From the NCBI RefSeq assembly GCF_028368995.1, contig NZ_JAQNDL010000001.1:288001-352000 (forward strand): a stretch of 64,000 nucleotides of DNA, read 5' to 3'. The DNA comes from Nannocystis bainbridge (GTDB lineage: Bacteria; Myxococcota_A; Polyangia; Nannocystales; Nannocystaceae). Shown here piece by piece: positions 5,274-63,994 of the stretch. Position numbers and translations under genes: made by a program. Each line of letters begins with the position of its first letter. The first letter of the stretch is position 1. The notes under the pieces are model-generated. The model did no database searches. It was not told the origin of the DNA and saw nothing but the letters and a program-made list of their open reading frames with translations.

Positions 5274-5353
5274 GGACATGTCTCATCGAGAATGTCTTGA
5301 AGGACATGCTCTTTACGACATGTCTTCGAGGACATCCACGTCATGACATCGTC
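5274..5353. repeat. 14-bp-period GGACATGTCC-type palindrome array (6 units)
   Basis: Core tetramers at 5277, 5291, 5305, 5319, 5333, 5347. Confidence 0.85.
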
Positions 5354-5401
5354 CGATCGCAGTCGGGGCCATGCACGGGCCGCTCGCGCTACACCGGGAT
5401 C

Positions 5402-8026
5402 ATGACGATCCGGCTGTCTGCGCTGTTCGGCCTCGGCATCCTCCTCGCGTGCAGTCGCTCCGCGACCACCCCGCTCGCCTACCCCGAGCTCTTGCCCGAG
5501 CCCGACTGGCAGCAGCTCGAGGTCCCCGTGCGCGCCGCCGAAGCGCGACCCGAGCCCCCGCCCGTCGCCCTCGCCGACGGTGAAGTCCGCGACGTCGTCT
5601 ACACCGACCCGGGCGCGCTCCCGCAGCTCATGCACGCCGGCGTCGCCTTGCCCCTGCGCAACACCGACGTGCGCGCCCACCTGCGCGGCCCCGTCGCCGA
5701 GGTCGTCGTCCGCCAGCGCTTCGTCAACGACAACGCCGCCGCGCTCGACGCCGTCTACACCTTCCCCTTGCCCGAGAACAGCGCCGTCACCGACATGCGC
5801 ATGATCGTCGGCGCGCGCACGATCGAGGCCGAGATCCGCGAGCGCGCCCAGGCGCGGGCCGAGTACACCGCGGCCCGCGACGCCGGCCACACCGCCGCGC
5901 TGCTCGAGCAGGAGCGGCCCAACGTCTTCACCCAGTCGCTCGCCAACATCCCGTCGGGCGAGACCGTCGAGGTCGAGCTGCGCTACCTGCAGACCCTGAG
6001 CTACGACGCCGGCGAGTACGAGTTCGTGTTCCCCACCGTCGTCGGCCCGCGCTACCTCCCCGGCGATCCGCTCGCGCGCCGCAGCGAGGGCAGCGGCACC
6101 CGCTCCGACACCGACCGCGTCCCCGACGCCTCGCGGGTCTCCCCGCCCGTGCTCGGCCGCGGCCTGCGGACCGGGCACGACCTCTCGATCTCTGTCGTCG
6201 CCGAGGCCGCCACCCCGATCGTCGCCTGGGCCGCACCCGCGCACGTCGTCACCGCCGACGCGACCGACGGCCACCTCCGCGTCGCCCTCGCCCGCCGCGA
6301 CGAGATCCCCAACCGCGATTTCGTCCTGCGCTACCGCAGCGCCGCCGCCCAGCCGGCCGCCAAGCTGTTCCTCGGGCCAGCCGACGGCGCCTCGGGCGGC
6401 CACTTCCTGCTCGTCGTCGATCCGCCGCGCCTCGACGTCGAAGCCGCCGTCGGCCGCCGCGAGCTGCTGTTCGTCGTCGACGTGTCCGGCTCGATGTCGG
6501 GCGCCCCGCTCGCGCTCGCCAAGGCCGCCATGCGCGAGGCCCTCGCGCGCGCCCGGCCGGTCGACACCTTCGACGTCATCACCTTCGCCGGCAGCTCCCG
6601 GCGCCTGTTCGGCGCGCCGCGGCCGGCCAACGCCGAGAACCTGGCCCAGGCCGTCGAGTTCGTCGACAGCCTCGGCGCCGGCGGCGGCACCGAGATGCTC
6701 GCGGCCGTCGACGCCGCGCTCGCCAGCCCGGTCGAGGCTGGCCGTCACCGCTACGTCTTCCTCATGACCGACGGCTACATCAGCGAGGAGGACGCGATCG
6801 CTCGCGCCGCGCACGACCTGCTCGAGCGCCAGCGCGCCCACCATCGCCGCGCCCGCGTGTTCGGCGTCGGCATCGGCGACGCGCCCAACAGCCACCTGAT
6901 CGCCGCGATCTCCAGGGCCGGCGACGGCGCCGCGCTGCACGTGCGCCGCCCCGCCGACCTCGCGCGCGCCGGCCAGGTCATCGAGCGCACCATCGACGCC
7001 CCCGTGCTCACCGGCGTCACCATCGACTGGGGCAGCCTCGCGCCGCGCGACCTCTCGGTCTCGCTGCCACCTGACCTTTTGGCCAGCCATCCGCTGGTCG
7101 TGCACGGCCGCTACGAGGGCGCCCCGCCGGCCGAGCTGCGCCTGCGCGCCCGCGTCGGCGAGCGCTCCGTCAGCTTCCCGATCGAGGTCGTGCGCAGCGA
7201 CGAATCGGGCCGCACCCTCGCGCGCCTGTGGGCCCGCGAGCAGATCGGCGCCCTCGACCTCGCGCGCGCCACCGCCGGATCGGCCGAGGACGCGCAGCAG
7301 GCCCGGCGATCGATCTTGCAGCTCGGCCTGCAGCACCACCTCGTCACCGCCTACACCAGCCTGGTCGCCGTCGATCGCACGCGCCGCGTCGAGGGCCTCG
7401 CCGCCGAGGTCGTCCAGCCGGTCGAAACGGTCGCCGGCACGGACAACGCCCAGGTCACCAGGCTCCGCTCCGATCAGGTCCGCTACATCCCGGTCGGCGG
7501 CACCAACCGCGACTTCACGGCCGTCGTCGAACTGGCACCCACCGCCAGCCGCGACGCCGCGGGCATCCGCCTCGGCGGGACCACGGCCGCCGAGGCGCGC
7601 TACGTCATCGACGCTCAGCGCGGCGACCTCGCGACCTTCGGCGCCCCGCCCTCGGAGGCCCTGGGCAACCCCGGCCGCGGCTTCGCCGGCGTCGAGCCGT
7701 ACGCCCGCGCCCGCATCGGCGCCGTCAGCGGGGCCAGCGACGCCGAGGCCGTCCGCCTGCGCGCCCTCCTGCGCGCCGACGCCGAGTCGCTCGCGCTGTG
7801 TTTCCTCGACGCCGGCGACACCACCTACCGCGTCCACCGCCGGTTCGTGCTCGTCGTCCACCTCACCGCCGCCGGCGGCCTCGCGCGCATGGAGGTCAAG
7901 GGCCGCTCGCCGCTCAGCCCGGGCCTCACCGCCTGCCTGCGCCAGAAGGTCTACCCGCGGGTCCGCGGCGTCGTCAGCCCCGGAACCACCATCGAGATCG
8001 ACCTCGGCGTGTGGATGCGCTTCTAG
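5402..8026 (+). CDS. VIT and vWA domain lipoprotein (inter-alpha-trypsin inhibitor-like)
   Basis: Lipobox-like LLAC; VIT motifs (YTFPLPENSAV, LLEQERPNVFTQSLANI); vWA MIDAS DVSGSM, GGGTEM, LMTDG; upstream ORF extension is repeat-derived. Confidence 0.9.
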   Translation: MTIRLSALFGLGILLACSRSATTPLAYPELLPEPDWQQLEVPVRAAEARPEPPPVALADGEVRDVVYTDPGALPQLMHAGVALPLRNTDVRAHLRGPVAEVVVRQRFVNDNAAALDAVYTFPLPENSAVTDMRMIVGARTIEAEIRERAQARAEYTAARDAGHTAALLEQERPNVFTQSLANIPSGETVEVELRYLQTLSYDAGEYEFVFPTVVGPRYLPGDPLARRSEGSGTRSDTDRVPDASRVSPPVLGRGLRTGHDLSISVVAEAATPIVAWAAPAHVVTADATDGHLRVALARRDEIPNRDFVLRYRSAAAQPAAKLFLGPADGASGGHFLLVVDPPRLDVEAAVGRRELLFVVDVSGSMSGAPLALAKAAMREALARARPVDTFDVITFAGSSRRLFGAPRPANAENLAQAVEFVDSLGAGGGTEMLAAVDAALASPVEAGRHRYVFLMTDGYISEEDAIARAAHDLLERQRAHHRRARVFGVGIGDAPNSHLIAAISRAGDGAALHVRRPADLARAGQVIERTIDAPVLTGVTIDWGSLAPRDLSVSLPPDLLASHPLVVHGRYEGAPPAELRLRARVGERSVSFPIEVVRSDESGRTLARLWAREQIGALDLARATAGSAEDAQQARRSILQLGLQHHLVTAYTSLVAVDRTRRVEGLAAEVVQPVETVAGTDNAQVTRLRSDQVRYIPVGGTNRDFTAVVELAPTASRDAAGIRLGGTTAAEARYVIDAQRGDLATFGAPPSEALGNPGRGFAGVEPYARARIGAVSGASDAEAVRLRALLRADAESLALCFLDAGDTTYRVHRRFVLVVHLTAAGGLARMEVKGRSPLSPGLTACLRQKVYPRVRGVVSPGTTIEIDLGVWMRF

Positions 8027-8033
8027 CTCCCGA

Positions 8034-8099
8034 GGACATGCCCGATCGAGCATGTCCGTACGGACATAAACCAAGGGACATGCTCCGAGGAGCATGTCC
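8034..8099. repeat. 14-bp-period GGACATGTCC-type array (5 units) between convergent genes
   Basis: Cores at 8037, 8051, 8065, 8079, 8093. Confidence 0.9.
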
Positions 8100-8118
8100 C
8101 TTCATGGTACCCGCAGCG

Positions 8119-9999
8119 CTACTTGCCGCCGGCCGCCTTGAGCTGCCGCTTGGCCTCGTCGAGCGCCTTCTTCACGTCCTTGTCGTTCGAGCGCATCTTG
8201 GCCGCGGCGGCGTAGGCGTCGACCGCCTCCTGCCAGCGGCCCTTGCCGGCCATGCCCTGGCCCTTGAGCACCAGCGGGTCGAAGCCGGGCTTGACCCCGA
8301 GCTTCTCGTACTCCTCGAGCAGGGCCGCCAGCTCGTCCCAGGCCTTCATCAGCCGCAGGATCTTGCCCTCGCCGATCAGCGCCTCGGCCAGCAGCTCCTT
8401 GACCCCGGGGGTCTCGGGGGCCAGCGCCTGCACGCAGCGGAACACCTGACCCGCGTCGTGGAAGCGCTTGTCGGTCAGCGCCTTGCGGCCGGTGTCGAGC
8501 GCGGCCGACGGGATCTTCTTGGTGAGCCGCTCGATCGCCTCGTGCTTCGGATCGATCTCCCGCAGCGCGGCCAGGTAGTCGCGCACGCACTCGCCGGAGG
8601 GCTGACAGAAGCGGCCCTCGCTGAGCGCCAGGTCGGCGCGTCCGGCCAGGACCAGCGGGTCGCCGGCGTTGTCGACCGCCTGCGGGATCGCCAGGTCGAG
8701 CGGCTTCGGCGGCTCGGCCGGCGTCGAGTCGTCGACGTCCTGCGTGACCCCCGTCAAGACCGCCGGCCCCTCGCTCGGCGGCTTGGCCTCGCCGCCGAAC
8801 AGGCGCGGCCCGAACAGCACCAGCACCACCGCGATGGTGCCGGCGCCGACCAGCCACAGCCACGCGTGCGGGTGCTCCTTGACCGGCGGCGGCGCGACCA
8901 GCCGCGGCTCCGCGGTCGGCCGCGGCGCGCTCATCGACGCGCTCGCCAGCAGCATGTTGGGGTGCGACGCCGCGGCGATCGGCTCGCTCGGCGGCAGCAG
9001 CGAGCCCGAGCTGAGCGACGTCGCGGCTGACCTTTCGGACCTGTCCGAATCGCCAGACGACGAGCGAGCGGCCCGCGGCGCCGCCGGGTCGAGCGAGCGC
9101 AGGAGGTCGACCTCGAGCACCCGCATCGAGCGGATCCGGTTGTCGGGCCGGGGCGCCAGGCAACGCGCCACGAGGTCCGCCAGCGCGGCCGGCACGTCGC
9201 GCACCAGGTCGTCGACACGCGGGGCCTCCTGGCGGCCCTTCTTCATCATGATGTCGTAGTCGTTGCGGCCGGTGTACGGCAGCCGCCCGGTCAGCATCTC
9301 GAACAGCACCGTGCCGAGCGCGTAGATGTCGGAGACCGGGTCGGCCTCCTCGCCGGCCGCCTGCTCCGGCGCCATGTAGGCCGTCGACCCCACGAGCTTG
9401 TCGATCGTCGACACGCCCGAGCGCTCGCTGTCCATGTGCGAGCAGACGCCGAAGTCCAGCACCTTGACGACGTCGAGCTCGCCGTCCTCGGTGACGAGGA
9501 CGATGTTGCTCGGCTTGAGGTCGCGGTGGATGATGCCCATGTCGTGGGCGGTCCCCAGCGCGCGGCACACCTGGCTGGCGATGTGGACCGCCCGCCCGGC
9601 CGAGATGCGCTTCTCCTCGTCGAGCACGGCGCGCAGGTTCTGCCCGTCGAGCAGCTGCATCACCGAGTACACGCCGCCGTCGTCGAGCTTGCCGGTGCTG
9701 AACACCTCGATGATGTTGGGGTGTTGCAGCACCTGCGCCGCCTCGGCGTCGCGCAGGAAGCGGTCGCGGATCTCGGGGTCGCGCGCGTAGATCTCGGGCA
9801 GGATGCGCAGGGCGCAGGGGGCCCCGCGCTCGGTGTCGCGTGCCCGGTACAGCGCCCCCATCTCGTCGAAGGAGAGCAGCTCCTCGACGCGATAGCGGTG
9901 CGCGATCATCGTGCCCCAGCGCTGCTCCGCGGCCTCGCGCGGCGAAACCATCGCCCTGTTGGGGTTGCTGAGCAGGCCGTCGTTCTCGATATCCGCCAT
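8119..9999 (-). CDS. Membrane Ser/Thr kinase-family protein with C-terminal TPR-like region (probable pseudokinase)
   Basis: HRDLKPSN, DFG, YMAPEQ and SDIYALG present; one TM; Gly-loop and beta3 Lys altered. Confidence 0.9.
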   Translation of the reverse strand: MADIENDGLLSNPNRAMVSPREAAEQRWGTMIAHRYRVEELLSFDEMGALYRARDTERGAPCALRILPEIYARDPEIRDRFLRDAEAAQVLQHPNIIEVFSTGKLDDGGVYSVMQLLDGQNLRAVLDEEKRISAGRAVHIASQVCRALGTAHDMGIIHRDLKPSNIVLVTEDGELDVVKVLDFGVCSHMDSERSGVSTIDKLVGSTAYMAPEQAAGEEADPVSDIYALGTVLFEMLTGRLPYTGRNDYDIMMKKGRQEAPRVDDLVRDVPAALADLVARCLAPRPDNRIRSMRVLEVDLLRSLDPAAPRAARSSSGDSDRSERSAATSLSSGSLLPPSEPIAAASHPNMLLASASMSAPRPTAEPRLVAPPPVKEHPHAWLWLVGAGTIAVVLVLFGPRLFGGEAKPPSEGPAVLTGVTQDVDDSTPAEPPKPLDLAIPQAVDNAGDPLVLAGRADLALSEGRFCQPSGECVRDYLAALREIDPKHEAIERLTKKIPSAALDTGRKALTDKRFHDAGQVFRCVQALAPETPGVKELLAEALIGEGKILRLMKAWDELAALLEEYEKLGVKPGFDPLVLKGQGMAGKGRWQEAVDAYAAAAKMRSNDKDVKKALDEAKRQLKAAGGK

Positions 10000-10186
10000 G
10001 ATTCGAACTTGCTTGCCCGGCGCTGCAGCGCCGGGCCCCCAAGGCTAACGCGAGCCGGTCACACCCTCAAATTTGTGCCCCCGCGCAATTTCAGGCTGCG
10101 CCCGTCCCAACCTGCCGAATCGCGCCGCGAACGTTCCAGCGCACATGGGCGCGGAGAACTTCCGCATCACCCGCCGGACCCCGAGG

Positions 10187-11500
10187 TCACGGCGAGTCGT
10201 CGACCTCCATCCGCCCCGTCCACGGGCCCCCGTCGTCCGCGGGCACGGTCACCTGCCCGCGTTGCGAACGCAGCCCGCGCACCCGCACCCCGAGCGTGTA
10301 GGTCCCCGGCAACACCGCGGCCGCGCCGATGGTGCCCTCCTCGTCCGTGCGCGCGCCGGCGAAGGGCCCGCCGTCGACCACCGCCCCGACCACGGGCAGG
10401 TCGCTGCCGCGTCGTATCACCGCCACGGTCACCGCGCGGCCGAGCGCCGGCACGCTCCCGACCAGCGTCACCGCCTCTCCGGCCACGTGTCCGGCCGAGA
10501 CCGCCAGCTCGACCCCGTCCTGGACCACGCGCAGGTCGTAGCTGCCCTCGCCGAGCTCCGCGAGGCTGAACTGCCCGGCCTCGACCCGCGCCTGGTGAAC
10601 CTCGTAGCCTCGCGCCTGCGCCCGCGCCAACACACGCGCGCGCGCGTAGGCCCGACCCTCGGCGTCGGTCACCGTGCCCTGCAGCGGCGTCAGCGGCGGC
10701 GCCAGCACCAATTGCCAGCCGTCCTCGTCGTCGACCGACACCTCCTTCTCGGTCGCGCGGAAGCCCGGCGCCCGGGCGATGAGCATCAGGGACGCGTAGG
10801 TCGGCACGTCGCGGGCGTCGCCCGGCTCGCAGCGCCCGCTGGCCTCGCCGCACGGGTCGCACGGCGGCTTCTCGACCCGCGCGAAGCTGAAGAAGCCCTC
10901 GCCGTCGCTGACCGTGTTGCGCGAGGTGAACGGCGGCAGCGCGCCCGGATCGTCGTCGGCCCCGCGGCGGACCCAGATCTGCGCCCCCGCGACCGCCCGG
11001 CCCTCGCCGTCGCTGACCGAACCAACCACCCGGCCCAGCGATTGCGCGACCAGCGTCACCGGCGCCCGGTTCGGCTCGAGCACCCACGGATCGCGCGGCA
11101 CCATCGTCGGGTGCCGCAGCTCGGCGCAGACGATGCCGCGGCAGCCCGGCCCGCTGAAATCGCCCTCGGCCCCGAGCTCCACCACCCCGCCGTCGATCGG
11201 CGCGCTGCGGCCCGTCCCGCCGGCCAGGCAGTGCAAGATGATCCGCCCGTCGCTGACGGGGCTGCCGTCGCGGTCGACGATCCGCCCCTGCACGACCCCT
11301 CGCCCGCTGCGATCGACGTCCGCACGGCGCGCCACCCCCTGCGTCGGCGCACCGACCTCGACCGCCGCCGTCACCTGCGTCGCCGTCGGCTTGTTCTTGC
11401 GCGCCCCCGGGCGAGCGGTCGACCGCGCGCCGGTCCCGAGCCAGACGGCCAGCGCCGCCAGCAACGCCAGCAGCGCGGCCACCACCGCCGCTCGCCTCAT
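10187..11500 (-). CDS. Secreted/anchored protein with repeated carboxypeptidase-regulatory-like (transthyretin-fold) domains
   Basis: N-terminal hydrophobic segment; repeated G-x-V-x-D-x-x-G-x-P/A-V motifs and TDEEG...PGTY; ATG overlaps the upstream stop. Confidence 0.75.
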   Translation of the reverse strand: MRRAAVVAALLALLAALAVWLGTGARSTARPGARKNKPTATQVTAAVEVGAPTQGVARRADVDRSGRGVVQGRIVDRDGSPVSDGRIILHCLAGGTGRSAPIDGGVVELGAEGDFSGPGCRGIVCAELRHPTMVPRDPWVLEPNRAPVTLVAQSLGRVVGSVSDGEGRAVAGAQIWVRRGADDDPGALPPFTSRNTVSDGEGFFSFARVEKPPCDPCGEASGRCEPGDARDVPTYASLMLIARAPGFRATEKEVSVDDEDGWQLVLAPPLTPLQGTVTDAEGRAYARARVLARAQARGYEVHQARVEAGQFSLAELGEGSYDLRVVQDGVELAVSAGHVAGEAVTLVGSVPALGRAVTVAVIRRGSDLPVVGAVVDGGPFAGARTDEEGTIGAAAVLPGTYTLGVRVRGLRSQRGQVTVPADDGGPWTGRMEVDDSP

Positions 11501-13299: not shown

Positions 13300-13413
13300 G
13301 GGCGGATCTTACCTCAGCGACATGCACGCCAGTGAAATCATCTGCGCCGCGCCTACGTTTTGTGGAACACTCAAAGGCTGCCGGTTGTCCGGGCCAGCAC
13401 GTAAGGCGGGTTT

Positions 13414-20547: not shown

Positions 20548-20602
20548 GACATGTCCTGAGGGACAGGCGCCATCGCCACGACATGTCCCGAAGGACACGT
20601 CA
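20547..20602. repeat. GGACATGTCC-type array (two 14-bp pairs) between convergent genes
   Basis: Cores at 20550/20564 and 20582/20596. Confidence 0.85.
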
Positions 20603-23964: not shown

Positions 23965-25542
23965 TCACGGCCTCGCTCGCCACAGCGCCCGCCCCACCAG
24001 CCCCGCCATCACCAGCCCGATCGCCGCCACCACGGCGAAGCCGATCAGCAGCCCCGGGTGCCCCGCGCGTGCCAGTCGCACCGCCCCGAGCATCAGCACA
24101 TCTGGTTGCAGCGACCCGAACCCCACGATCGGGCTCGCCCACCCCGCGAAGTGTGAAGTCTCGAGCACGTGCCCGGCCGAGCGGGGGTCGTTCGTCAGCG
24201 CGATCATCCACTCGAAGATCGATCGCGTCGCCAGCCACCCCGTCAGCGCCGCGCTGGCGGTCAGCCCCGACCAGACCCACCGACGCACCCGCACCGACCG
24301 CCGCGGCAGGTCTTCGATCAGCGCCGCCAACCCGATCATCACCAGCGGGATCGCCGGCACCAGGTGACGCGGTCCCAGGCTCCATCCGCCGTACCAGTCG
24401 GTGCGCGCCGACACCACCAGCCAGCGCGTCGCCAGCAGCGACAGCGCCAGCCACGTCGCCGCCGGCGCCCGTCGCAGCGCAGCCCGCATACCGAACAGCC
24501 CCAGCGTCGCCGCCGGCGCGTACAGCCACAGGCTCCGGCCTGGCGCCAGCATCTGCGCCCACAGCCCCGTCCACGGATTGGTCCACGCGCTGTAGTGGCC
24601 GAACCTGCCGGTCTCGAGTGCATCGCCGAAGCGCAGCCACTGCCCGAGCAGCAGCAGCCCGAGGCCGAGCCCTGCCAGCAGCGCCGCGCCGATCAGCCCG
24701 CGCCGCGCCGGCGCCAGCGCTTTGAGACATGCCCCAAGAGACATGCCCTTTCCATCATGCCCCTTCGAACCTGTCCAAAAGGGCACCAGCGCGTACGCCG
24801 CCAGCCACGGCCACGCCACCAGGTTGAGCACGTGGACGTGGACCGCGAAGCCGGCCGCCGCCCCGGCCAGCCACAGTCGGCAATCGGCCGCCCGCGGTCG
24901 GCCGGCCCGCAGCGCCTGCGCCTGAGCGATCGCCACGGCCGCCGCCAGCAGCACCATTGCCGAGAGCGGCTCGCTGAGGAACGTGCGCGTATACGGCCAC
25001 GCCGCCGTGCCGGTCGCGTACGCCAGCCCCGTCCACAGCGCCGCTCTCGGCGACAGCCCGACCCATGCCAGCCAGCGGACCAGCAGCCACGCCGTCGCCG
25101 CCGTCACCAGGCAGTTCGTCAGGCTGACCACCAGGTGCAGCCAGTCGGCCCGCGGCTCGCGCGCGTGGAACGTGAAGTGGTCGGAGCGGACCGCGCGCGT
25201 CCACGCGAACGGCACCCGCGGCGGCGCGGTCGCGCGGCCCAGCGCGTACATCGGCGCCGCCACCAGCGACAGCCCGTGGCCGAACAGCCCGTAGCGGCGG
25301 CCCTCCGGCCCCTCGGCCCAGCCGAACGTCCCTGGCGGGCGTCCTGGCGGTTCACCGGTGCGGTGGGCGATGCCGGCGATGGTCAGCGAGCCGCGCTCGA
25401 CCAGGCTCGCCGTCGTCTGGAACACGATCTCGTCGTCGGGGAACTGGATGCGCCCCGGCGCGGTGCACAAAAATAGCGCGGCGCAGGCCGCAAAGAGAGC
25501 GGCTGCGCCGGGCGTACGCGGATTTGGGGTTGTCGGGTCCAG
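23965..25542 (-). CDS. GT-C-fold (PMT/ArnT-like) membrane glycosyltransferase-like protein; start codon uncertain
   Basis: First-loop DDE motif, WPYTRTFLSEPL, W.GGWSLGPRHLVP, many TMs; N-terminal TM lies upstream of TTG 25470, so CTG 25542 is proposed as start. Confidence 0.7.
   Translation of the reverse strand: MDPTTPNPRTPGAAALFAACAALFLCTAPGRIQFPDDEIVFQTTASLVERGSLTIAGIAHRTGEPPGRPPGTFGWAEGPEGRRYGLFGHGLSLVAAPMYALGRATAPPRVPFAWTRAVRSDHFTFHAREPRADWLHLVVSLTNCLVTAATAWLLVRWLAWVGLSPRAALWTGLAYATGTAAWPYTRTFLSEPLSAMVLLAAAVAIAQAQALRAGRPRAADCRLWLAGAAAGFAVHVHVLNLVAWPWLAAYALVPFWTGSKGHDGKGMSLGACLKALAPARRGLIGAALLAGLGLGLLLLGQWLRFGDALETGRFGHYSAWTNPWTGLWAQMLAPGRSLWLYAPAATLGLFGMRAALRRAPAATWLALSLLATRWLVVSARTDWYGGWSLGPRHLVPAIPLVMIGLAALIEDLPRRSVRVRRWVWSGLTASAALTGWLATRSIFEWMIALTNDPRSAGHVLETSHFAGWASPIVGFGSLQPDVLMLGAVRLARAGHPGLLIGFAVVAAIGLVMAGLVGRALWRARP
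24725..24790. repeat. 14-bp-period array (5 units) embedded in the GT-C gene
   Basis: Cores at 24728, 24742, 24756, 24770, 24784; AT-richer than flanking codons. Confidence 0.8.
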
Positions 25543-43226: not shown

Positions 43227-43278
43227 CCGAATGTCCGTGAGGACATGCTCCACAGAGCATGTCCTCACGGACAGCTTT
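43227..43278. repeat. 14-bp-period array (4 units) forming a perfect 19-bp inverted repeat
   Basis: TGTCCGTGAGGACATGCTC-CACA-GAGCATGTCCTCACGGACA (43232-43273), followed by a T-rich tract. Confidence 0.9.
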
Positions 43279-44222: not shown

Positions 44223-44299
44223 TGACATGACCGCGAGACCATGCCCATGCACCCGCCGCGTCGTGATGTCCGAACGGTCATGTCCCAAAGGACATGACC
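44223..44299. repeat. GGACATGTCC-type units between convergent genes
   Basis: Cores 44226/44240 and 44265, 44279, 44293. Confidence 0.75.
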
Positions 44300-45653: not shown

Positions 45654-45719
45654 GAACATGCACTCTCGGCCATGCCCGGGCGGACATGTCCCTTCGGGCA
45701 TGCCCGAGAGGACCTGCGC
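45654..45719. repeat. 14-bp-period array (5 units)
   Basis: Cores 45657, 45671, 45685, 45699, 45713. Confidence 0.9.
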
Positions 45720-51112: not shown

Positions 51113-51118
51113 ACATTC

Positions 51119-51184
51119 GGACATGCGCGATGAGACATGCCTGAAAAGGCATGCACTTTTGGACATACGGTCTGCGGCACCCTC
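51119..51184. repeat. 14-bp-period array (4-5 units)
   Basis: Cores 51122, 51136, 51150, 51164, (51178). Confidence 0.85.
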
Positions 51185-52167: not shown

Positions 52168-52173
52168 CTCTCG

Positions 52174-52239
52174 GGACATGCCCTCCGGCGCATGTCCAGA
52201 CGGACATGCACTTATGGACATGTCTTGAGAACCACCTGT
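52174..52239. repeat. 14-bp-period array (4-5 units) between convergent genes
   Basis: Cores 52177, 52191, 52205, 52219, (52233). Confidence 0.9.
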
Positions 52240-52449: not shown

Positions 52450-54075
52450 TCACTCGCCGAACACGCGCACCAGCGACATGTTCTCCGGGACATGCGCCTC
52501 GAGCCATGTCCGGACATGCACCCGGCTCGCCCGCCAGAACTCCGCCAGCGTCGTCCCGGCCGCCCCGTCGAGCCGCTGGATCAGCCCCACGAACCCGCGG
52601 ATCGCCGGCGCCAGGGTCGGCACGCGCAGCGGGTCCGAGCCGTGGCGCGGCGCGATCGCCCCGACGTCGAAGTTGCGCGTGCGGGCCAGCGCCGGCGCCA
52701 CCGGGTCGCGCGGCTCGATCAGCAGGTACAGGTCGCCCTGCCCCGGCGCCGCCGCCCGCTCGCGCAGATGCACGCACACGAACCCGAGCCGCTCGGGTCC
52801 GGCCTCCTCGAGCGCCACGCCCGGACCGGCAGCGCGGGCCGTCTGGCGCGCCGTCGCCTCGTCGCGCACCTCGTCCAGCGCCAGGTTCTGCACCAGCCCG
52901 CTCGTCAGCACCACGAACGCCTTCTGCGGCTTCAGCTCGGTGTCGCGGGTCAGCAAGATCCGCTTCGACTCCCAGAAGTAATCGTCGCGGTAGAGGTTCT
53001 GCTGGTAGTAGAAGCGGACCATCCGCAGCAGGTCGCCGAACATCTCGCGGTGGTGCGCCTGATACTTCGCGCGCGCCCCCGCCTCGTCGGCTCCGCCCTG
53101 CAGCAGCGCGATCGCCGTGCGCCCCGCGTGCCACGCCGAGTGCAGCGCCAGCAGCACCCCCGTCGAAAGCACCGGGTCGATGAACCCGGCCGCGTCGCCG
53201 ATCTGGATCCACCCGGGACCTGTCACTTCGGACATGCGGTAGCTCCAGTCGCGCTCGTGGCGGACCGGCGTCGCCCGCGTCGCCGCCGGCCCGAGCACCG
53301 GCGCCAGCTCGCCCGCCGCCGCCAGCAGCGCGTCGAAATCGCGGCGCGGCGCCCCGCGGGCCTCGCCGGCGTCGAGCTGCACCACCCCCACGCTCGCCTT
53401 GCCGCCGCCGATCGGGAAGAACCACCACCACTGATCGGCCTCGGCCAAAAACAGCGCCTGCTCGTGGCGCGGCGGCGGCACCCCGGCGCAGCCCGTGAAG
53501 TGGGCCCACATCGCCTGGTGCTTGAGCCCGCCGATCTCCTCGCGGCGATCCTTCGCCCGCCCGAGCAGCATCGACTGCCCGGTCGCGTCGATCACCAGCC
53601 GCGCCCGCGTCTCGTGCGTCGCGCCGGCCCGCTCCCACGTCACCCCGACCAGCCGCTCGCCCTCCCACACCAGCGAGCGCGCGGCCGCCCGGTCGAGCAC
53701 CACCGCCCCCGCGCGGGTCGCCGCCGCGAACAGGATCGCGTCGAAGCGCGAGCGCTCGACCAGCCACGCGTGTTCGTACGCGTCGCTGTCGTGGAACCAC
53801 AGGTCCCAGCGCGGCGTCTTGCCCCACCCCCACAGCGTGCTGCCGGTCTTGCGCCCGAAGCCCGCCGCCTCGACCTCGGCCAGCGCGTCGATCTCGGCCA
53901 GGATCGGGATGATCCCCGGCAGCAAGCTCTCGCCCACGTGTGCCCGCGGGTGCGTGCCCGCCTCGAGCAGCAGCACGCGCAGCCCCGCCTTCGCCATCAC
54001 CGCCGCCGCCGTGCTGCCCGCCGGCCCGCCGCCGATCACCAGCACGTCGACCGCGTCGAGCTCACCCGCCGTCAC
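52450..54075 (-). CDS. Flavin-dependent halogenase-like oxidoreductase
   Basis: GGGPAGS, HPRAHVGESLLP, GFGRK, WWWFFPI (WxWxIP variant), GDAAGFIDPVLSTG; GTG 54075 preferred because the upstream extension is repeat-derived. Confidence 0.85.
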   Translation of the reverse strand: MTAGELDAVDVLVIGGGPAGSTAAAVMAKAGLRVLLLEAGTHPRAHVGESLLPGIIPILAEIDALAEVEAAGFGRKTGSTLWGWGKTPRWDLWFHDSDAYEHAWLVERSRFDAILFAAATRAGAVVLDRAAARSLVWEGERLVGVTWERAGATHETRARLVIDATGQSMLLGRAKDRREEIGGLKHQAMWAHFTGCAGVPPPRHEQALFLAEADQWWWFFPIGGGKASVGVVQLDAGEARGAPRRDFDALLAAAGELAPVLGPAATRATPVRHERDWSYRMSEVTGPGWIQIGDAAGFIDPVLSTGVLLALHSAWHAGRTAIALLQGGADEAGARAKYQAHHREMFGDLLRMVRFYYQQNLYRDDYFWESKRILLTRDTELKPQKAFVVLTSGLVQNLALDEVRDEATARQTARAAGPGVALEEAGPERLGFVCVHLRERAAAPGQGDLYLLIEPRDPVAPALARTRNFDVGAIAPRHGSDPLRVPTLAPAIRGFVGLIQRLDGAAGTTLAEFWRASRVHVRTWLEAHVPENMSLVRVFGE

Positions 54076-54099
54076 GCGCACCTCGCCGGGACATCGCCA

Positions 54100-54224: not shown

Positions 54225-54249
54225 TCGGCCGGCCCCGACACCTTCGCGC

Positions 54250-56076: not shown

Positions 56077-56309
56077 GGAGGGCTGTGGGCTCGGATCGGC
56101 AGTCACGGCGAGCCTCAGCAATACCAGACGTCCCGACACCGACGAAAGCGGCCCTCGCCTGGATCCGGGTGCCGCGGCCCCTGGTCGCCGGTGCTTCATG
56201 AAGCGGCGGACAGGCTCCTGCTCGGAGCCGCTGACGCTCTGCGAGCACGCCGAGCGCCGGGGCTCACGTCTGCGGCGACGGCGAGCCCGCAAACATCCGT
56301 CAGCCGGCC

Positions 56310-56981: not shown

Positions 56982-57111
56982 GGCCTGTCCCTCGGGACAG
57001 ACTCATCCACGCGCCCGCCCGCGCTCACGCCACGCCTGCCCCTCGGGACATGTCCTTTTGAGCCTGTCCCTCGGGTCATGCCCATGCGAACATGTCCTCG
57101 CGGACCTGTCC
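56940..57111. repeat. GGACATGTCC-type arrays downstream of carA, extending into the next gene
   Basis: Pairs 56943/56957 and 56984/56998; run 57035, 57049, 57063, 57077, 57091, 57105. Confidence 0.9.
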
Positions 57112-57119
57112 GCACGGGC

Positions 57120-58310: not shown

Positions 58311-58329
58311 GGTCCTCCAGACATGTTCT

Positions 58330-59334
58330 TCAGAGCAGCTCGACCCCGCAGGCGCGGGCCAGCACCGCCATGCGGACCGCCACGCCGAGGGTGACCTGGC
58401 GGAGGATCCGGCTGTGTGGGCCGTCGGCGACCGCGTCGGCGATCTCGACGCCGCGGTTGATCGGCCCCGGGTGCATCACGATCGCCCCGGGCGCGAGCAG
58501 GCCGAGGCGCGCGGGCGTCAGCCCCCAGGCCGCGTGATAGCTCGCCGCGTCCGGGATCGCCACGTCGGCGCCGAGGCGCTCGCGCTGGATCCGTAGCATC
58601 ACCGCCACGTCGGCCCCGCGCAGCGCCTCGTCGAGGCTCGGCGCCGCCGTCGCCCCCAGGCGCGCGGCCAGCTCGGGCGGCGCCAGGTCGCCGGGTCCCG
58701 CGACCACGCACTCGGCCCCGAGCGTGCGGAACAGCTGCAGGTCCGAGTGGGCCACCCGGCCGTGGCGGACATCGCCGCAGACCGCCACGCGCAGCCCGCT
58801 CATCGCCCCCTGGCTCGGCGCCCGGCCGAACGCCTCGAGGATCGTCAGCGCGTCGAGCAGCGCCTGCGTCGGGTGCTCGTTGACGCCGTCGCCGGCGTTG
58901 ACGACGCGGGCGCGCATGACCTCGGTCCACGCGCGCGGCACCCCGTCGCGGCGGTCGCGGACCACCACCGCGTCGAAGCCCATCGCGTCGAGGTTCTCCA
59001 GCGCGTCGCGCTCCGTCTCGCCCTTGCTGGCCGAGCTGGCGGCGTCTTGCACGAAGTGCACGACCTCGGCGCCGAGCCGGCGCGCCGCGACCTCGAAGCT
59101 GAGGCGGGTGCGCGTGCTCGGCTCGGAGAACACGCTCAAGATCTGGGCCCCGCGCAGGATCGGCAGCTCGCGCGCCCCGCCGCCCTCGGCCAGCGGCAGC
59201 ACGCGGGTGGCGGCGGCCAGCACGGCGCAGGCCTCGGCCGGCGACAGGTCGGCGATCTCGCACAGGTCGCGGCCGGGACGACGACCCCGCCGCGTTGCCG
59301 CGCCCCCGTCGCCGCTGTCGCCTGCGCGGTGCAT
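58330..59334 (-). CDS. pyrB: Aspartate carbamoyltransferase catalytic subunit
   Basis: EPSTRTRLSFE, SKGET, NAGDGVNEHPTQALLD, LRIQRER, MHPGPINRG. Confidence 0.95.
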   Translation of the reverse strand: MHRAGDSGDGGAATRRGRRPGRDLCEIADLSPAEACAVLAAATRVLPLAEGGGARELPILRGAQILSVFSEPSTRTRLSFEVAARRLGAEVVHFVQDAASSASKGETERDALENLDAMGFDAVVVRDRRDGVPRAWTEVMRARVVNAGDGVNEHPTQALLDALTILEAFGRAPSQGAMSGLRVAVCGDVRHGRVAHSDLQLFRTLGAECVVAGPGDLAPPELAARLGATAAPSLDEALRGADVAVMLRIQRERLGADVAIPDAASYHAAWGLTPARLGLLAPGAIVMHPGPINRGVEIADAVADGPHSRILRQVTLGVAVRMAVLARACGVELL

Positions 59335-59466
59335 CGTTTCTACCTGGCGCGGAGGGATAGCGCCGGCCCGCGCTTCGCGTCAACCCGCGCCTCCCCTCGC
59401 GCCCGGACCGCGGCGGTGCCCTGGCTCACCTGCCTGTCACTCCTGGTACCCTGCGACCAGGGCCCC

Positions 59467-60285
59467 ATGGACCGCGAACCCTCCGTCACCAGCGCCGCCG
59501 TCCTCCTCATCGGCAACGAGCTCCTCAGCGGCAAGATCCGCGACCAGAACGGCCACGAGCTGGCGAAGATGATGCGCCGGCGAGGGATCCGCCTGGTCGA
59601 GATGTGCACCGTCGAGGACGACCTCGGCGCCATCGGCGAGGCCTTGCTGCGCCTGCTCGCCCGCGTGCCGCTGGTGTTCACCAGCGGCGGCGTCGGCCCC
59701 ACCCACGACGACGTGACGATGGAGGCGATCGCCCGCGCCATCGGTCGCCCGCTGCGACGCGACCCCGACATGGAGCGGACCCTGCGCGCCCACTTCGGCG
59801 AGCGCATCACCGACGCCGCGCTGAAGATGGCCGACCTGCCCGAGGGCACCGCCTTGACCGCCGCGCGCGGCTGGCCGGTGATGCGGATCGACCTGCCCCC
59901 CGGTGCGCAGGCGAGTGCGCGGCGGATCTACGTGTTGCCCGGCATCCCCGAGCTGTGCCGGGCCAAGATCGAAGCGCTCGAGAAGATCCCCGGCGAGCTG
60001 CCCGACGCTGGCGGTTGGGCGCTGGAGACCCTGCACACGGAGATGGACGAGTCCGACCTGGCGGCCAGCTTGAACCGGGTCGTGGCCGCCTATCCGGAGG
60101 TCGAGATCGGGTCCTATCCGCGCTGGCTCAGCGGTGACGACGGGCGGCTGCGCTGCGTCGTGCGCGTGACCTTTGAGGCCATCGGCGAGCACAGCGGGCG
60201 AGCGGGCGCCGCCCGGGACGCCCTCGCGGTGGCGCTCGGTGACGCGGCCGTCTTGGCGGTCCCGGCGGACGGCGCGCTGTTGTGA
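59467..60285 (+). CDS. Molybdopterin-binding-domain / CinA N-terminal-like protein
   Basis: IGNELLSGKIRDQN, TSGGVGPTHDDVT, LPGIP, IGSYP. Confidence 0.9.
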   Translation: MDREPSVTSAAVLLIGNELLSGKIRDQNGHELAKMMRRRGIRLVEMCTVEDDLGAIGEALLRLLARVPLVFTSGGVGPTHDDVTMEAIARAIGRPLRRDPDMERTLRAHFGERITDAALKMADLPEGTALTAARGWPVMRIDLPPGAQASARRIYVLPGIPELCRAKIEALEKIPGELPDAGGWALETLHTEMDESDLAASLNRVVAAYPEVEIGSYPRWLSGDDGRLRCVVRVTFEAIGEHSGRAGAARDALAVALGDAAVLAVPADGALL

Positions 60286-60324
60286 ACATCCCTCCGCCGA
60301 AAGTTCCGTGCTAGCTTCCGGGCC

Positions 60325-60843
60325 ATGCGCCGCAGCCTGACCGCGCTCTTCTTCACCAGCGCATTGCTGGCCGTCTCTGGGTGCAGCCAGCCCAAGAAGG
60401 ACATCCTGGCGCTCCCCGCGGCGTACGACCCGCAGGGCGCCGACCTCACCTTTAACAAGAAGAACCTGGAGAGCTTCAACACGATGAAGCCCCAGGAGCG
60501 GGCGGACTTCGTCAAGGCGCTGCAGGACAAGCCCGGCAGCTTCCGCGGCCAGGCGGTCACCGAGGCGGGCAACGGCCTCGCGGCCGGCGTCGAGGGCTCC
60601 GAGCACGGCCCGTGGGAGACCTTCGCCCACGTCACCGAGCCGGTGCTGTTCGAGATCACGATCGATTACCGCATCTTCTCGACCGAGGAGCTGGGCCGGC
60701 CGCTGGGTCGCAACCTCCCGATCTCCTTCACCGGTACGCTCGTCGACCTGCGTTACGACGCCGAGTCGAAGCCGCGCAAGCTGACCATCCAGGTCAAGGC
60801 CGACGCGATGGCGCTGATCACCGACAAGACCCCCGCGAGCTGA
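60325..60843 (+). CDS. Putative lipoprotein
   Basis: Lipobox VSGC; host-like codon usage. Confidence 0.8.
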   Translation: MRRSLTALFFTSALLAVSGCSQPKKDILALPAAYDPQGADLTFNKKNLESFNTMKPQERADFVKALQDKPGSFRGQAVTEAGNGLAAGVEGSEHGPWETFAHVTEPVLFEITIDYRIFSTEELGRPLGRNLPISFTGTLVDLRYDAESKPRKLTIQVKADAMALITDKTPAS

Positions 60844-60853
60844 GCGAGCGCCC

Positions 60854-61828
60854 TTGTTAGACTCTGTCGGCTCACCCCTGACCTGGGTCGCGTTCCTCGT
60901 CGGCATCCTCGTCCTGCTGGCGATCGACCTCGGTCTCTTCAACCGCAAGCCGCGCCGCATCTCGATGCGCGAGGCGCTGATGTGGTCGTGCATCTGGGTG
61001 CTGCTCAGCCTGGCCTTCAACGGCTGGGTCTGGCACGCCTTCGGCGACGAGAAGGCGCTCGAGTTCCTCAGCGCCTACCTGATCGAGAAGGCGCTCTCGG
61101 TCGACAACATCTTCGTGTTCATCGTCCTGTTCCGCTACATGCGGGTCCAGCAGGAGTACATGCACCGGATCCTGTTCGCCGGGATCCTCGGCGCGCTGAT
61201 CCTGCGCGGCATCTTCATCCTCGCCGGCCTGGCGCTGATCGAGATGTTCACCTTCTCGCTGTACCTGTTCGGCGGCTTCCTGGTGTTCACCGGCCTGCGC
61301 CTGCTGTTCGTGCGCGAGGGCGGGGGCGACGGCGAAGAGGCCGGCCAGGACAACTTCGTCAAGCGCTGGGCCGAGAAGTTCTTCCGCGTCACCAAGGACT
61401 TCCAGGGCCCGCGCTTCTTCGTCACCAAGGACGGCAAGCGCTACGTGACGACCCTGTTCGTCACCCTGCTGATGGTCGAGACCGCCGACGTCGTGTTCGC
61501 GCTCGACTCGATCCCCGCCATCTTCGGCATCAGCACCGACCCGTTCATCGTCTTCACCAGCAACGTGTGCGCGGTGATGGGCCTGCGGGCCATGTTCTTC
61601 CTGCTGGAGAACGTGATCGACCGCTTCTGGCTGCTCAAGTACGGCCTCGGCCTGGTGCTCTCGTTCGTCGGCGTCAAGATGCTGCTCGGCGTCGGCTACG
61701 CCCCCTACGTCGAGCCGTTCCACATCCCGATCGGCATCTCGCTCGGCGTCGTCTCGGCCCTGATCGGCGGCACCATCGTCCTGAGCCTGCTGTTCCCGCC
61801 CAGCCACCCGCCCGAGGCGAAGTCGTAG
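60854..61828 (+). CDS. terC: TerC/Alx family membrane protein
   Basis: YLIEKALSVDNIFVF, D.VFALDSIPAIF, FTSNV.AVMGLRA, FVGVKML. Confidence 0.93.
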   Translation: MLDSVGSPLTWVAFLVGILVLLAIDLGLFNRKPRRISMREALMWSCIWVLLSLAFNGWVWHAFGDEKALEFLSAYLIEKALSVDNIFVFIVLFRYMRVQQEYMHRILFAGILGALILRGIFILAGLALIEMFTFSLYLFGGFLVFTGLRLLFVREGGGDGEEAGQDNFVKRWAEKFFRVTKDFQGPRFFVTKDGKRYVTTLFVTLLMVETADVVFALDSIPAIFGISTDPFIVFTSNVCAVMGLRAMFFLLENVIDRFWLLKYGLGLVLSFVGVKMLLGVGYAPYVEPFHIPIGISLGVVSALIGGTIVLSLLFPPSHPPEAKS

Positions 61829-61839
61829 CCTGACCGCGG

Positions 61840-61877
61840 GGACATGCGCGAAGGGACATGTCCCTTCGCGCATGTGA
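61840..61877. repeat. 14-bp-period array (3 units), hairpin-forming
   Basis: Cores 61843, 61857, 61871; ACATGCGCGAAGGGACATGTCCCTTCGCGCATGT is a perfect palindrome. Confidence 0.9.
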
Positions 61878-62209
61878 ATGCGGCGCGCCGACCCGGCTCC
61901 TCGTGCTGCCGACTCGCGGCGGTGGGTTCGCGCGGCCCCGGCCGCTGCGACGGAAATCGCTCAGAGCCCGCGACCCGCGCTGTCGCCCTCCGTCCTCGCG
62001 GCCCCTCACGCACCCTTGCGATCCCCGGGGCGCGGGAACGCAGGTTCAAGCCGCGGCAGACGACGCGACCCTCGCTGGCGACCTCTGCCCTCGCTACCCA
62101 CGAGTGATTCTGCCCTCGCGGCCGCCCGGACCCGCCGCGCTCACGCTCCTTCGCGGACCTGCGGCGCGGCGCCCCGGAACGGCCGCCCGCCCGCGGTGTC
62201 TCATCGGCC

Positions 62210-63994
62210 ATGCCGTCCGCCGCGCTCGCGCTCGTCCTCGCCCTCGCGCCCGCCGCCGCATCGACAGGTACTTTGGGACAGGCCGCCTGGGACAGCGCCG
62301 CCATGAGCGCCCGCGACATGGTCGATCGCGCCGGCCTGGTCCGGCCGGGTCAAAAGACTCGCGGCGAGTTGGTCGCCGCCGCCGGCCTCTCGCGCGCCGA
62401 CGTCGTCCGTGTCCTGGGGGACATGTTCACCGCCTGCGGCGGCGCCGCCTGCCCGGCCCTGCAGAGTGACGAGCCGGCCCGGATCCTGCTCGACACCCTC
62501 GGCGAGATCGGCGTGTTGGCCGACGCGCCGCTGCTCCTGCGCCTCGACGCGGTCAGCATCTACCAGGCCGAGCGGAGCCTCGAGGCGATCCTCACCCGCG
62601 CCATGGCCGACGCCATCCCGAAGGCCCGCTGCGCCCCTCCGACCCGCAGCGAGCTCGCCACTGCCCGCCTCGCGCTGGCCGACTTCGCCGTCCTCCGCCG
62701 CCACGGCGACGTGCTTCAGGGCGACGCGCCGACCCCCGCCGAGCTCGACGACCTCGCCTACTTCTTCGCCGCCGTCGCCGACACCGGCCCCGAGGTCGGC
62801 CGCACGCGCGAGGCTGGCGGCGCGCGCAAGCCGGCAGCGCCCGACCCCGAGAGCGATCGCCTCGCCGCCGCCGTCGCTGACGCCAAGACCCGCGGCGACG
62901 TCGCTGGCCTCGTGCAGCACGGCCGCGCCTACCTGGCTCGCCTCGGCTTCCCGGGCCCGCTCGACAGCAGCGCCGAGACCCACTGGGCGTGGGGCGGCGC
63001 CCGCTACTCCTACGTCTTCCGCGACCTCGCCCTCGGCGCCGAGCTGCTCGGCGACCCGACTCTCGCCGGTGAGCTCTACCGCCGCGCCAACCCCGGCGGC
63101 GGCATGTGCGGCACTAGCGTCTCTTACCGCTGGAGCGAGCAGGTCCGCGGCGCCATCCGCAGCGCCGAGCGGACCGGCGACTGCCGCGTCGCCATGGCCG
63201 AGCGGCTGCTCGACGTGGATGGCCCGAGGGACATGTACCCAAAGCCAGCCCCTGCCAGCATCGACTACGGCCCGGCCCGCCTGGCCGAGGCCGGCTTCGA
63301 CGTGGCCCGGCTGTACCGCGGCGCCATCCTCACCGCCGGTCGCGACGGCGAGCCCGCGGAGGTCCGCGCCGCGCTCGAGCGGGCGCCCGAGCCGCTGCGC
63401 AGCGCCGCCCTGGCTCGCCTGGCCCGCCGCGGCCCCGAGGCCTGGGAGGCCCGCGTCCACGCCCTCGAGGGCCTGGCCGACGTCGTCGGTCGCCCCGCCG
63501 TCGCCGAGCTCGAGCGGATGCTGCCGCTGCTCGCCGACGGTCCGCGCCAGCGCGCGCTCGAAGCCATCGGCGAGCTCGCCGACCGCCCCGCGTGGGACCC
63601 GTGCGACCCCGACGAGGCCGGCATCTACTTCAGCAGCTACAGCAGCCAGTGGTCGCGCCACGTCACCAGCCTCGGCGACAGCTGCGACACCGTCCTGCGC
63701 CTGCACGAGGCGGGCCCGCTGGCCCTCTCGCTCACCGCCTGGCTCGCCGACGCCAACCCCGACACCCGCGAGGCCGCCGCCGCCGCGCTCGGCAAGATCG
63801 GCCACCGCGCCGCCCTCCCGGCCCTGCGCGCCAGCAAACGCGACCGCTTCTACCCGGACGACTCGAAGCGCTGCGACGACGGAAATTGCCACATCTACTT
63901 CCCGGTCCGCGAGGCCGCCGCCGAGGCGATCGTCGCCATCCGCGAGCGCAGCGTCCACGACGCCCGCTGGCGCCGCAACGACGCCCACCGCTGA
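62210..63994 (+). CDS. Secreted HEAT-repeat-containing protein
   Basis: Signal peptide; LADANPDTREAAAAALGKIG and VREAAAEAI HEAT-like units. Confidence 0.75.
   Translation: MPSAALALVLALAPAAASTGTLGQAAWDSAAMSARDMVDRAGLVRPGQKTRGELVAAAGLSRADVVRVLGDMFTACGGAACPALQSDEPARILLDTLGEIGVLADAPLLLRLDAVSIYQAERSLEAILTRAMADAIPKARCAPPTRSELATARLALADFAVLRRHGDVLQGDAPTPAELDDLAYFFAAVADTGPEVGRTREAGGARKPAAPDPESDRLAAAVADAKTRGDVAGLVQHGRAYLARLGFPGPLDSSAETHWAWGGARYSYVFRDLALGAELLGDPTLAGELYRRANPGGGMCGTSVSYRWSEQVRGAIRSAERTGDCRVAMAERLLDVDGPRDMYPKPAPASIDYGPARLAEAGFDVARLYRGAILTAGRDGEPAEVRAALERAPEPLRSAALARLARRGPEAWEARVHALEGLADVVGRPAVAELERMLPLLADGPRQRALEAIGELADRPAWDPCDPDEAGIYFSSYSSQWSRHVTSLGDSCDTVLRLHEAGPLALSLTAWLADANPDTREAAAAALGKIGHRAALPALRASKRDRFYPDDSKRCDDGNCHIYFPVREAAAEAIVAIRERSVHDARWRRNDAHR

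Follow-up and report, generated by a model that had tools for sequence, protein, structure and literature searches.

What builds and retains the short CATG-centred palindromes that recur at 14-bp steps along a stretch of the Nannocystis bainbridge genome? The stretch analysed here (hereafter the window) comprises 64,000 nucleotides (G000:C1:288001-352000) of an 11.05-Mb assembly, G000, with 71.5% G+C and five contigs, and the element repeated in it is a 10-bp palindrome, GGRCATGYCC, with four free spacer bases after it. A first-pass annotation, made from the sequence of the window, had described about 30 loci with runs of this unit and had proposed them as a dispersed, chromosome-wide system of sites. 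The reading that we favour, at about even confidence, is that the arrays represent a gene-end element similar to repetitive extragenic palindromes (REP) and bacterial interspersed mosaic elements (BIME) but without a REP-associated tyrosine transposase (RAYT), probably built by slippage, kept behind stop codons at converging 3' ends and held in phase by a putative reader.

Arrays were called with a 10-column weight matrix, trained on the lattice positions beside CATG-N10-CATG pairs, by linking matrix matches of at least 6 bits at exact 14-bp steps. This chaining yielded 31 arrays of at least two units in the window, in agreement with the earlier count, and the six example runs of the first-pass annotation were all recovered, displaced by 3-11 bp. 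Genome-wide, it yielded 3,206 arrays, of which 1,276 have at least three units and 771 at least four, compared with 148-400 chains, almost all of two units, at the control periods of 12, 13, 15 and 16 bp. Distances between CATG words peak at 14 (3,736), 28 (2,073), 42 (1,586), 56 (751) and 70 bp (383) over a background of about 70-300 counts at neighbouring distances, and distances one base pair off phase show no excess over background; the autocorrelation at 14, 28 and 42 bp expected of a dispersed, phased, chromosome-wide family is thus present. The word GACATG occurs 100 times in the window as against 24.8 ± 5.4 times in 100 dinucleotide shuffles (maximum 41), and ACATGT shows the top excess among hexamers in the genome relative to base composition. 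A codon-preserving shuffle, which had been suggested as a check, showed that in-phase pairs within called coding sequences (CDS) number 1,083 against 98-107 in three synonymous-codon shuffles, a tenfold excess, and lone units 4,678 against a synonymous-shuffle expectation of about 3,983, an excess of 17%.

The perfect unit GGACATGTCC occurs 956 times in the genome, and perfect units adjacent in phase form only 20 pairs and no triples, so that the units must be regarded as degenerate. The second dyad that had been noticed between adjoining units, TGTCC-N4-GGACA, is real and constitutes the commonest arrangement (1,987 occurrences). With permissive extension, the genome contains 4,403, 1,979, 790, 447 and 329 lattice spans of one, two, three, four and five units, respectively, and 245, 107, 35 and 23 spans of six, seven, eight and at least nine, a distribution that has its shoulder at 4-6 units and declines beyond. 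One 13-unit chain with a period of 13 bp and one 21-unit lattice span with a period of 14 bp stand out as outliers. Where two CATG cores lie 28 bp apart, the lattice place between them also reads CATG in 1,670 of 2,073 cases (81%). The spacers tend only loosely towards YWWR and have a higher A/T content than the genome overall; neighbouring spacers agree at 1.32 of four positions, near the 1.09 of random pairs, and the earlier remark that the units of a run vary in their spacers and flanks holds for this genome. Unit, spacer and array have a similar appearance on either strand, and spacer-versus-spacer matrices revealed no symmetry around the array centre that would make the whole array a palindrome.

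The arrays are found mainly behind genes, as judged from called open reading frames (ORFs), the calls in the window having been inspected visually and compared with Pfam. The 771 arrays of at least four units comprise 371 in convergent, 252 in tandem and 18 in divergent gaps, together with 79 located in called CDS and 51 partly so, in a genome with 1,310 convergent and 1,289 divergent gaps in total. Arrays of at least two units occupy 50% of 1,268 convergent gaps versus 14% of 1,233 divergent gaps. The median array start lies 11 bp past the stop codon in convergent gaps and 18 bp past it in tandem (co-directional) gaps, and 81% of the arrays in tandem gaps are closer to the upstream stop than to the following start, which is a median of 220 bp away. 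Array density is roughly even on all five contigs, with 9-76 arrays (span of at least three) per full 250-kb bin. An organiser acting on the whole chromosome and of the parS, matS or FtsK-orienting (KOPS) type, as the first-pass annotation had considered for parS and matS, would be in keeping with thousands of palindromic sites over all contigs, but it appears very improbable, since the siting follows gene ends and not chromosome position, palindromic sites are without polarity, and parS or matS sites, which number from a few to tens and are placed by chromosome domain (origin or terminus), differ from the thousands of gene-end sites observed here.

Convergent gaps are longer the more units they contain, with medians of 102, 112, 131, 164 and 252 bp, and the DNA outside the arrays remains near 73-109 bp, indicating that the arrays are added DNA. 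Because the unit is self-complementary, a dyad of the form unit-N4-unit is an inverted repeat and a 14-bp direct repeat at once, and slipped-strand duplication would therefore account for the phase with no extra assumption. Core variants run on in the same orientation (CAGG is followed by CAGG 122 times versus 38 expected, and CCTG by CCTG 117 times versus 49), and fully identical adjacent 14-mers make up 11 of 3,736 pairs versus about one expected. A genome of a sister genus, G071, contains 275 in-phase three-unit arrays at up to three mismatches of 24, where a control pattern gave none. Among the matches listed for this one incomplete genome (67% complete), on which the evidence for young arrays is based, five of 11 perfect three-unit arrays have identical spacers, and the single array inspected begins 5 nt past a TGA stop. 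The dyad has also been amplified within a longer repeat unit, since positions 18305-18511 of the window form a 54-57-bp tandem repeat of about 3-3.5 copies with one dyad, CACATGTCC-CCGC-GGACATGTCC, in each. From these patterns we infer that the 14-bp lattice was probably built by slipped-strand tandem duplication. A site-adding mechanism had been among the earlier proposals, and it gains support from arrays that lengthen gaps and grow by 14-bp tandem duplication; the accompanying statement that the runs are unlike a slippage minisatellite is right in that spacers differ in N. bainbridge, but was too strong in view of the identical spacers in the sister genus.

Classical mobile repeats, either REPs or hairpin-forming REP doublets (REPINs) spread by a RAYT or miniature inverted-repeat transposable elements (MITEs) moved in trans by a transposase, are likewise extragenic, palindromic, abundant and clade-restricted, but there is hardly any room for such an origin here. 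The Y1 transposase family PF01797 (RAYT, IS200) has no match in the N. bainbridge assembly (90.5% complete), compared with matches in six of 14 control genomes, and no transposase was identified by Pfam among the 42 ORFs of the window; the earlier statement that the window encodes neither a transposase nor a RAYT therefore stands and extends, for the Y1 family, to the whole assembly. The most similar other array is as distant as in controls with shuffled units, except in 25 of 1,669 windows, for which an identical copy exists; this excludes MITE- or REPIN-like copy families and agrees with the first-pass view that these are not copy-paste MITEs. MITE copies are alike over their full length and have terminal inverted repeats and target-site duplications, none of which applies to the arrays, and the scarcity of perfect in-phase pairs noted above also speaks against such an origin. 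No Rfam family reached threshold in the window. The REP/BIME sequences of Enterobacteria and Pseudomonas (including REPINs), whose suggested roles are to protect mRNA 3' ends, to terminate transcription and to bind proteins, resemble the arrays in being short, imperfect extragenic palindromes with hundreds to thousands of copies that are grouped in arrays behind stops or between convergent genes, may form hairpins and vary between relatives. They differ in that their unit is 20-40 bp long instead of a 10-bp perfect self-palindrome, and in that the arrays keep a strict 14-bp phase, lack a RAYT in this assembly, form no sequence families of copies and grow by local tandem duplication. The arrays also lack the GTAG or CGTC tetranucleotide that tags one end of a REP (PMC3733652).

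Synteny of the window is maintained in all five large relatives, with aligned blocks of 69-95% identity, and the cross-species comparison refers to these blocks. Most relatives have arrays in the same gaps, with different unit numbers and gap lengths and with gaps that cannot be aligned. For example, the gap 8027-8118 contains arrays in five of five relatives (5, 2, 7, 4 and 5 units), and the gap 44156-44300 corresponds to gaps of 147-532 bp with 1, 6, 7, 7 and 5 units. The array at 57046 keeps its five-unit phase in six of six species despite degenerate middle units, and its spacers differ. Semi-global alignment of 14 gaps gave identities of 0.70 for cores, 0.60 for flanks, 0.47 for spacers and 0.59 for other gap DNA, figures not relied on here because the aligner may pair non-orthologous units and CDS edges reached only 0.60. 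The relatives carry about 2.4-2.9 kb of extra DNA at 5090-5401 (five of five mapped relatives) and at 36120-36271 (four of four mapped relatives). A mobile element was rejected as its explanation, the extra DNA consisting of ordinary genes missing from N. bainbridge and the two loci being unrelated; that at 5090-5401 resembles, by eye, a sensor kinase/response-regulator hybrid. Arrays are present at both places in N. bainbridge despite the missing genes. The sequencing runs retrieved were all soil, wetland and root metagenomes, and none came from the organism in culture. Contigs from these (X1-X4) cover positions 43001-63000 in short, low-depth pieces, three of which span arrays with unchanged units and no 14-bp indel listed, too sparse a sample to inform on transcript 3' ends or array dynamics.

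The high turnover between species in unit number and gap length, the signatures of tandem duplication and the siting itself, which favours 3' gaps, shuns promoter gaps and largely spares CDS as expected of any tolerated insertion, would also be produced by functionless, slippage-prone palindromes that expand where they do no harm, 3' gaps being the sole tolerant places. We consider this improbable. Neutral decay would erase cores and phase as fast as spacers, yet both persist: CATG is kept at 81% of the lattice places, the phase is unbroken by indels, and the five-unit phase is shared by six of six species, all in the presence of randomised spacers. In addition, the tolerated core variants are not those of neutral drift, transversions being 12 times as frequent as transitions, and the 50% occupancy of convergent gaps would need repeated seeding, beyond slippage alone.

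The distribution of the dyad ACATGTCC-N4-GGACATGT was traced at up to one mismatch, for which the reversed control pattern gave 0-1 match per genome. The dyad was found in eight of eight genomes of the window's genus (43-772 copies each), in five of five genomes of genus g2 (21-24 copies each) and in seven of seven genomes of genus g4 (3-214 copies each); a single match was found in one of seven genomes of g10, and none in 34 genomes of 13 other genera of the family. The dyad system thus occurs in three related genera, not one. Within g4 (genomes G013 to G071), the counts span 3 to 214, so amplification, or loss, seems to have taken place in g4 independently of the window's genus. At 15 loci examined in G011, a member of g2, the dyads occupy A/T-rich gaps and are in most cases located upstream of genes; several directly follow a TA-rich -10-like box and one lies between such a box and a Shine-Dalgarno sequence, as judged by eye. 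Three-unit arrays gave zero and one match in two g2 genomes. No array periods except multiples of three were detected in 100 kb each of G011, G013 and G024 and 41.6 kb of G022, samples too small for sparse dyads. A P4-type integrase was considered as a partner of the G011 dyads and rejected: it occurs at four of the 15 loci (two of them duplicates), starts 377-475 bp from the dyad, which lies outside the conserved element, has no tRNA gene nearby and has no match in the N. bainbridge assembly at E <= 1e-10. At three of the G011 loci (L089, L092 and L095), a near-identical stretch runs about 250-480 bp to the right of the dyad, from a (GGCGAT)n run into the integrase; on the left side the three loci differ in their DNA, dyad included, and a fourth locus, L090, duplicates 140 bp around the L089 dyad. 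An 82-aa ORF beside two dyads, without a match in Pfam or in the N. bainbridge assembly, was also set aside.

The following mechanism is proposed for the REP/BIME-like gene-end element. The dyad unit-N4-unit, made of a self-complementary unit, would gain whole 14-bp units by slipped-strand mispairing; the arrays persist nearly only behind stop codons, where they would become part of the mRNA 3' end of one converging gene or of both, a portion with the predicted ability to fold into tandem 10-13-bp hairpins. As gene-end barriers, these may protect mRNA 3' ends or insulate genes from read-through, as has been proposed for REP/BIME, and a sequence-specific reader, most likely a clade-specific protein recognising the dyad, would hold the unit sequence and the phase. 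The predicted folding agrees with such a role, since among 60 gaps sampled per class the mean fold z is -4.4 for convergent gaps with arrays, -2.0 for convergent gaps without arrays and -0.4 for divergent gaps. Example arrays of the window fold at z -2.4 to -7.6, two units with their spacer (24-28 bp) being able to fold and a single unit offering only 10 bp. The RNA of 8034-8099 is predicted to fold with -40.7 kcal/mol on the + strand and -45.3 kcal/mol on the - strand (z -7.6 and -7.3), and the five-unit array directly after dnaJ, at the end of an hrcA-grpE-dnaK-dnaJ operon with no arrays internally, with -40.6 kcal/mol on the sense (-) strand (z -4.2) versus -25.0 on the + strand (z -2.4). 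The G.U-compatible form is favoured on the sense strand of the nearest gene, with G..T versus A..C counts of 753:566 in convergent and 578:482 in tandem gaps. That convergent gaps without arrays bear other hairpins suggests that the niche is structural. In this regard the arrays resemble Rho-independent terminators, which are also G+C-rich hairpins directly behind genes and bidirectional between convergent genes; they differ in lacking a U-tract, in sharing one stem sequence genome-wide and in having several tandem units. A consensus terminator scan of positions 1-20000 returned five sites versus 4.4 expected, and the sole convincing one was an array hairpin. A loading site for the Rho hexamer, which contacts about 13 nt per subunit, was rejected in view of the balanced G and C content and the strong structure of the arrays.

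A number of observations weigh against this mechanism. Pair-breaking core variants (CCTG plus CAGG, 132) far outnumber wobble-compatible ones (CGTG plus CACG, 11), and hairpin formation alone therefore cannot be the conserved object. The mean complementarity of neighbouring units barely exceeds that of units paired at random (6.85 versus 6.75 of 10 positions), and stem-restoring inverted combinations of variants occur at expectation (58 versus 43 and 46 versus 43). The difference in fold energy between sense and antisense strands is weak (266 versus 228 arrays, p = 0.04), the sense-strand G..T bias could stem from transcription-linked deamination, and no U-tract follows the arrays, the downstream T frequency in 226 arrays being at most 0.34 and at the genome level within 12 nt. 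The gene context comes from a home-made, crude caller based on G+C at third codon positions (GC3), with 7,415 genes and 81% coding. As regards the reader, 20 ORFs neighbouring the 39 divergent-gap arrays included one AraC regulator and nothing recurrent by Pfam, and the 24 and 15 ORFs beside sister-genus dyads included no recurrent DNA-binding family. Finally, the route by which founder units entered thousands of separate gaps is left unexplained by the model.

The main alternative, at the DNA level, is one that we rate as possible though rather unlikely: a double-stranded lattice in which a clade-specific protein would place one dimer per 14-bp step, on the unit or on TGTCC-N4-GGACA, and polymerise over about 3-6 units to mark or insulate gene ends as a roadblock terminator or topological barrier, the hairpins being irrelevant. 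The strict lattice, the lack of compensatory pairing and the non-pairing variants are consistent with binding by a dimeric or polymerising protein, as the first-pass annotation had proposed, and the base-specific variant spectrum, which includes 99 AATG plus CATT versus 8 GATG plus CATC in addition to the counts above, points to a sequence-specific reader as a candidate. The absence of variants one base off phase in spite of free spacers, the shoulder at 4-6 units, the likeness of both strands, the 21-24 dyad copies in each of the five g2 genomes and the operator-like siting at the 15 G011 loci would all suit such a lattice. It is less compatible with the failure to find a candidate protein, with the modest but significant sense-strand bias towards G.U-compatible forms (dnaJ being the clear case) and with the other hairpins in array-free convergent gaps, and the operator-like reading of the G011 sites was made by eye. 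Taken together, the variant spectrum and strict phase favour a DNA lattice, and the strand bias and structural niche favour a role of the RNA; the two are not mutually exclusive. A doubtful extension would see the arrays as tracks for a polymerising clade-specific dimer, with one dimer on each 14 bp and runs of about 3-6, that form a bidirectional boundary at transcription-unit ends, that is, a sequence-specified roadblock terminator or supercoil barrier at about half of the converging pairs. On that extension, six dimers would cover 84 bp or eight helical turns, and the system would have originated from an ordinary regulon with some 20 operators, which the sister genus would still display.

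Cooperative operator arrays bound by ribbon-helix-helix proteins, such as the 8-bp metboxes of MetJ, the 7-bp heptads of omega proteins and the ParR/parC iterons, are comparable to a lattice of this kind. They likewise consist of short, partly palindromic units, 2-10 of them placed head-to-tail with a fixed period and bound cooperatively by one dimer per unit, and a fixed centre-to-centre spacing with free spacer sequence is observed here as well; they are, however, located at promoters or centromeres, at few loci per replicon, in contrast to about 3,200 arrays with a 14-bp period at gene 3' ends. The operator of M.SsoII/Ecl18kI, given as AGGACAATTTGTCCT in PMC2760811, has the GGACA/TGTCC half-sites in common with the arrays but in another arrangement (5 nt between them) and is a lead only. 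The likeness of the unit to a p53 half-site was treated as a coincidence; among the matches listed, the literature containing GGACATGTCC is eukaryotic and mostly concerns p53. Uptake sequences of Neisseria and Haemophilus, pairs of which often form terminator-like inverted repeats behind genes, and the cyanobacterial HIP1 are also clade-specific, non-mobile short words with thousands of copies, but they are common within genes and unphased, whereas the present signal lies in phased arrays and lone units in CDS exceed shuffles only slightly. CRISPR arrays have repeats of 23-50 bp, unique spacers of similar length and cas genes, compared with a 10-bp unit, a 4-bp spacer, at most about 12 units per array and thousands of loci here. 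In the open literature on Nannocystis/Myxococcota repeats, REP and terminators, with subscription journals and supplements outside this scope, no description of the array family could be found; PMC3733652 contains none of the myxobacterial terms looked up in it, and PMC12306157 mentions neither Myxococc nor Nannocystis.

The coordinates of individual arrays in the window are given in Table 1.

Table 1. Arrays and dyads in the window and their gene context
Feature	Position	Context	Remark
5-unit array and weaker sixth unit	5274..5339	gap between Mrp/NADH-type antiporter gene (end 5089) and VIT/VWA gene (start 5402)	Tandem Repeats Finder (TRF) period 14/28
5-unit array	8034..8099	fills convergent gap 8027-8118	two hairpins, one per stop codon
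three 2-unit dyads	18351-18374, 18405-18428, 18462-18485		
2-unit dyad	20579..20602	convergent gap 20548-20613	extra single unit overlaps region just past stop 20547
4-unit array, GACATGCCC-type units	24725..24776	within ORF 23965-25470 (crude caller)	ORF without Pfam match
three 2-unit dyads	29515-29538, 29605-29628, 29838-29861	552-bp gap 29440-29991	13 units total
2-unit dyad and 5-unit array	36142-36165 and 36200-36265	convergent gap closing hrcA-grpE-dnaK-dnaJ operon	dnaJ ORF end 36272
2-unit dyad	43241..43264	about 15 bp past pirin-family gene stop (end 43226)	perfect 12-bp-stem inverted repeat
two 2-unit dyads	44223..44299	convergent gap 44156-44300	
4-unit array and weaker fifth unit	45654..45705	beside stop of gene 45735-46448	overlaps called start region of 44301-45701
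3-unit array	51119..51156	begins 7 bp past stop at 51112	
4-unit array	52174..52225	convergent gap	begins 7 bp past TAG stop of M23 peptidase gene (end 52167)
3-unit array	52474..52511	3' end of halogenase-like gene 52450-54111, - strand	
two arrays	54100-54137 and 54159-54210	gap 54112-54249	3 units; 3 units over 4 lattice places
5-unit array	57046..57111	behind carA stop (57120-58310, - strand)	
2-unit dyad and weaker third unit	61840..61863	12 bp past TerC gene stop (end 61828)	
6-unit array, first bases	63995..64000	starts at stop of ORF 62210-63994	extends to window+64074

Pfam matches could be assigned to 28 of the 42 ORFs of the window, all of ordinary chromosomal families, and the closest named homologues of its DnaK are those of Enhygromyxa salina (60%) and Plesiocystis pacifica (59%). 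Upstream of hrcA, a gap of 954 bp contains C-rich tandem repeats of 51 and 87 bp at 41075-41439 with the motif GCCCGAAATCA, which are unrelated to the CATG units. Under a maximal-order Markov model, the most over-represented hexamers of the genome are TTAGGA, TGCTAA, TTAGCA and TCCTAA, of which TTAGCA and TGCTAA may correspond to CIRCE, an element of HrcA regulons. Another module of a related kind, CACCTGTCYCTTCGRCCAGC, was observed at 31118-31223 and 23817-23964, where it repeats every 48-75 bp or so; it occupies entire gaps in G005, G007 and G001 and resembles a CCTG-core dyad with a degenerate second unit.

If the proposed reading is true, myxobacteria of an entire clade with large genomes use a single common, sequence-specific element to mark roughly every second converging gene end, and this element would be neither a classic terminator nor a transposase-driven REP. 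This touches on the question of how transcripts end in high-G+C bacteria without U-tract terminators, as well as on how REP-like families stay uniform without a RAYT, and the strict 14-bp phase, combined with the non-pairing variants, makes a protein reader a testable prediction. As a general rule, an inverted dyad whose unit is self-complementary is at the same time a direct repeat, from which slippage yields a phased array. The sister genera may provide a natural series in this respect, from about 22 apparently promoter-side dyads, through young arrays with identical spacers, to the old and diverged arrays of N. bainbridge. In practice, the arrays could serve as landmarks for gene 3' ends in the annotation of such genomes.

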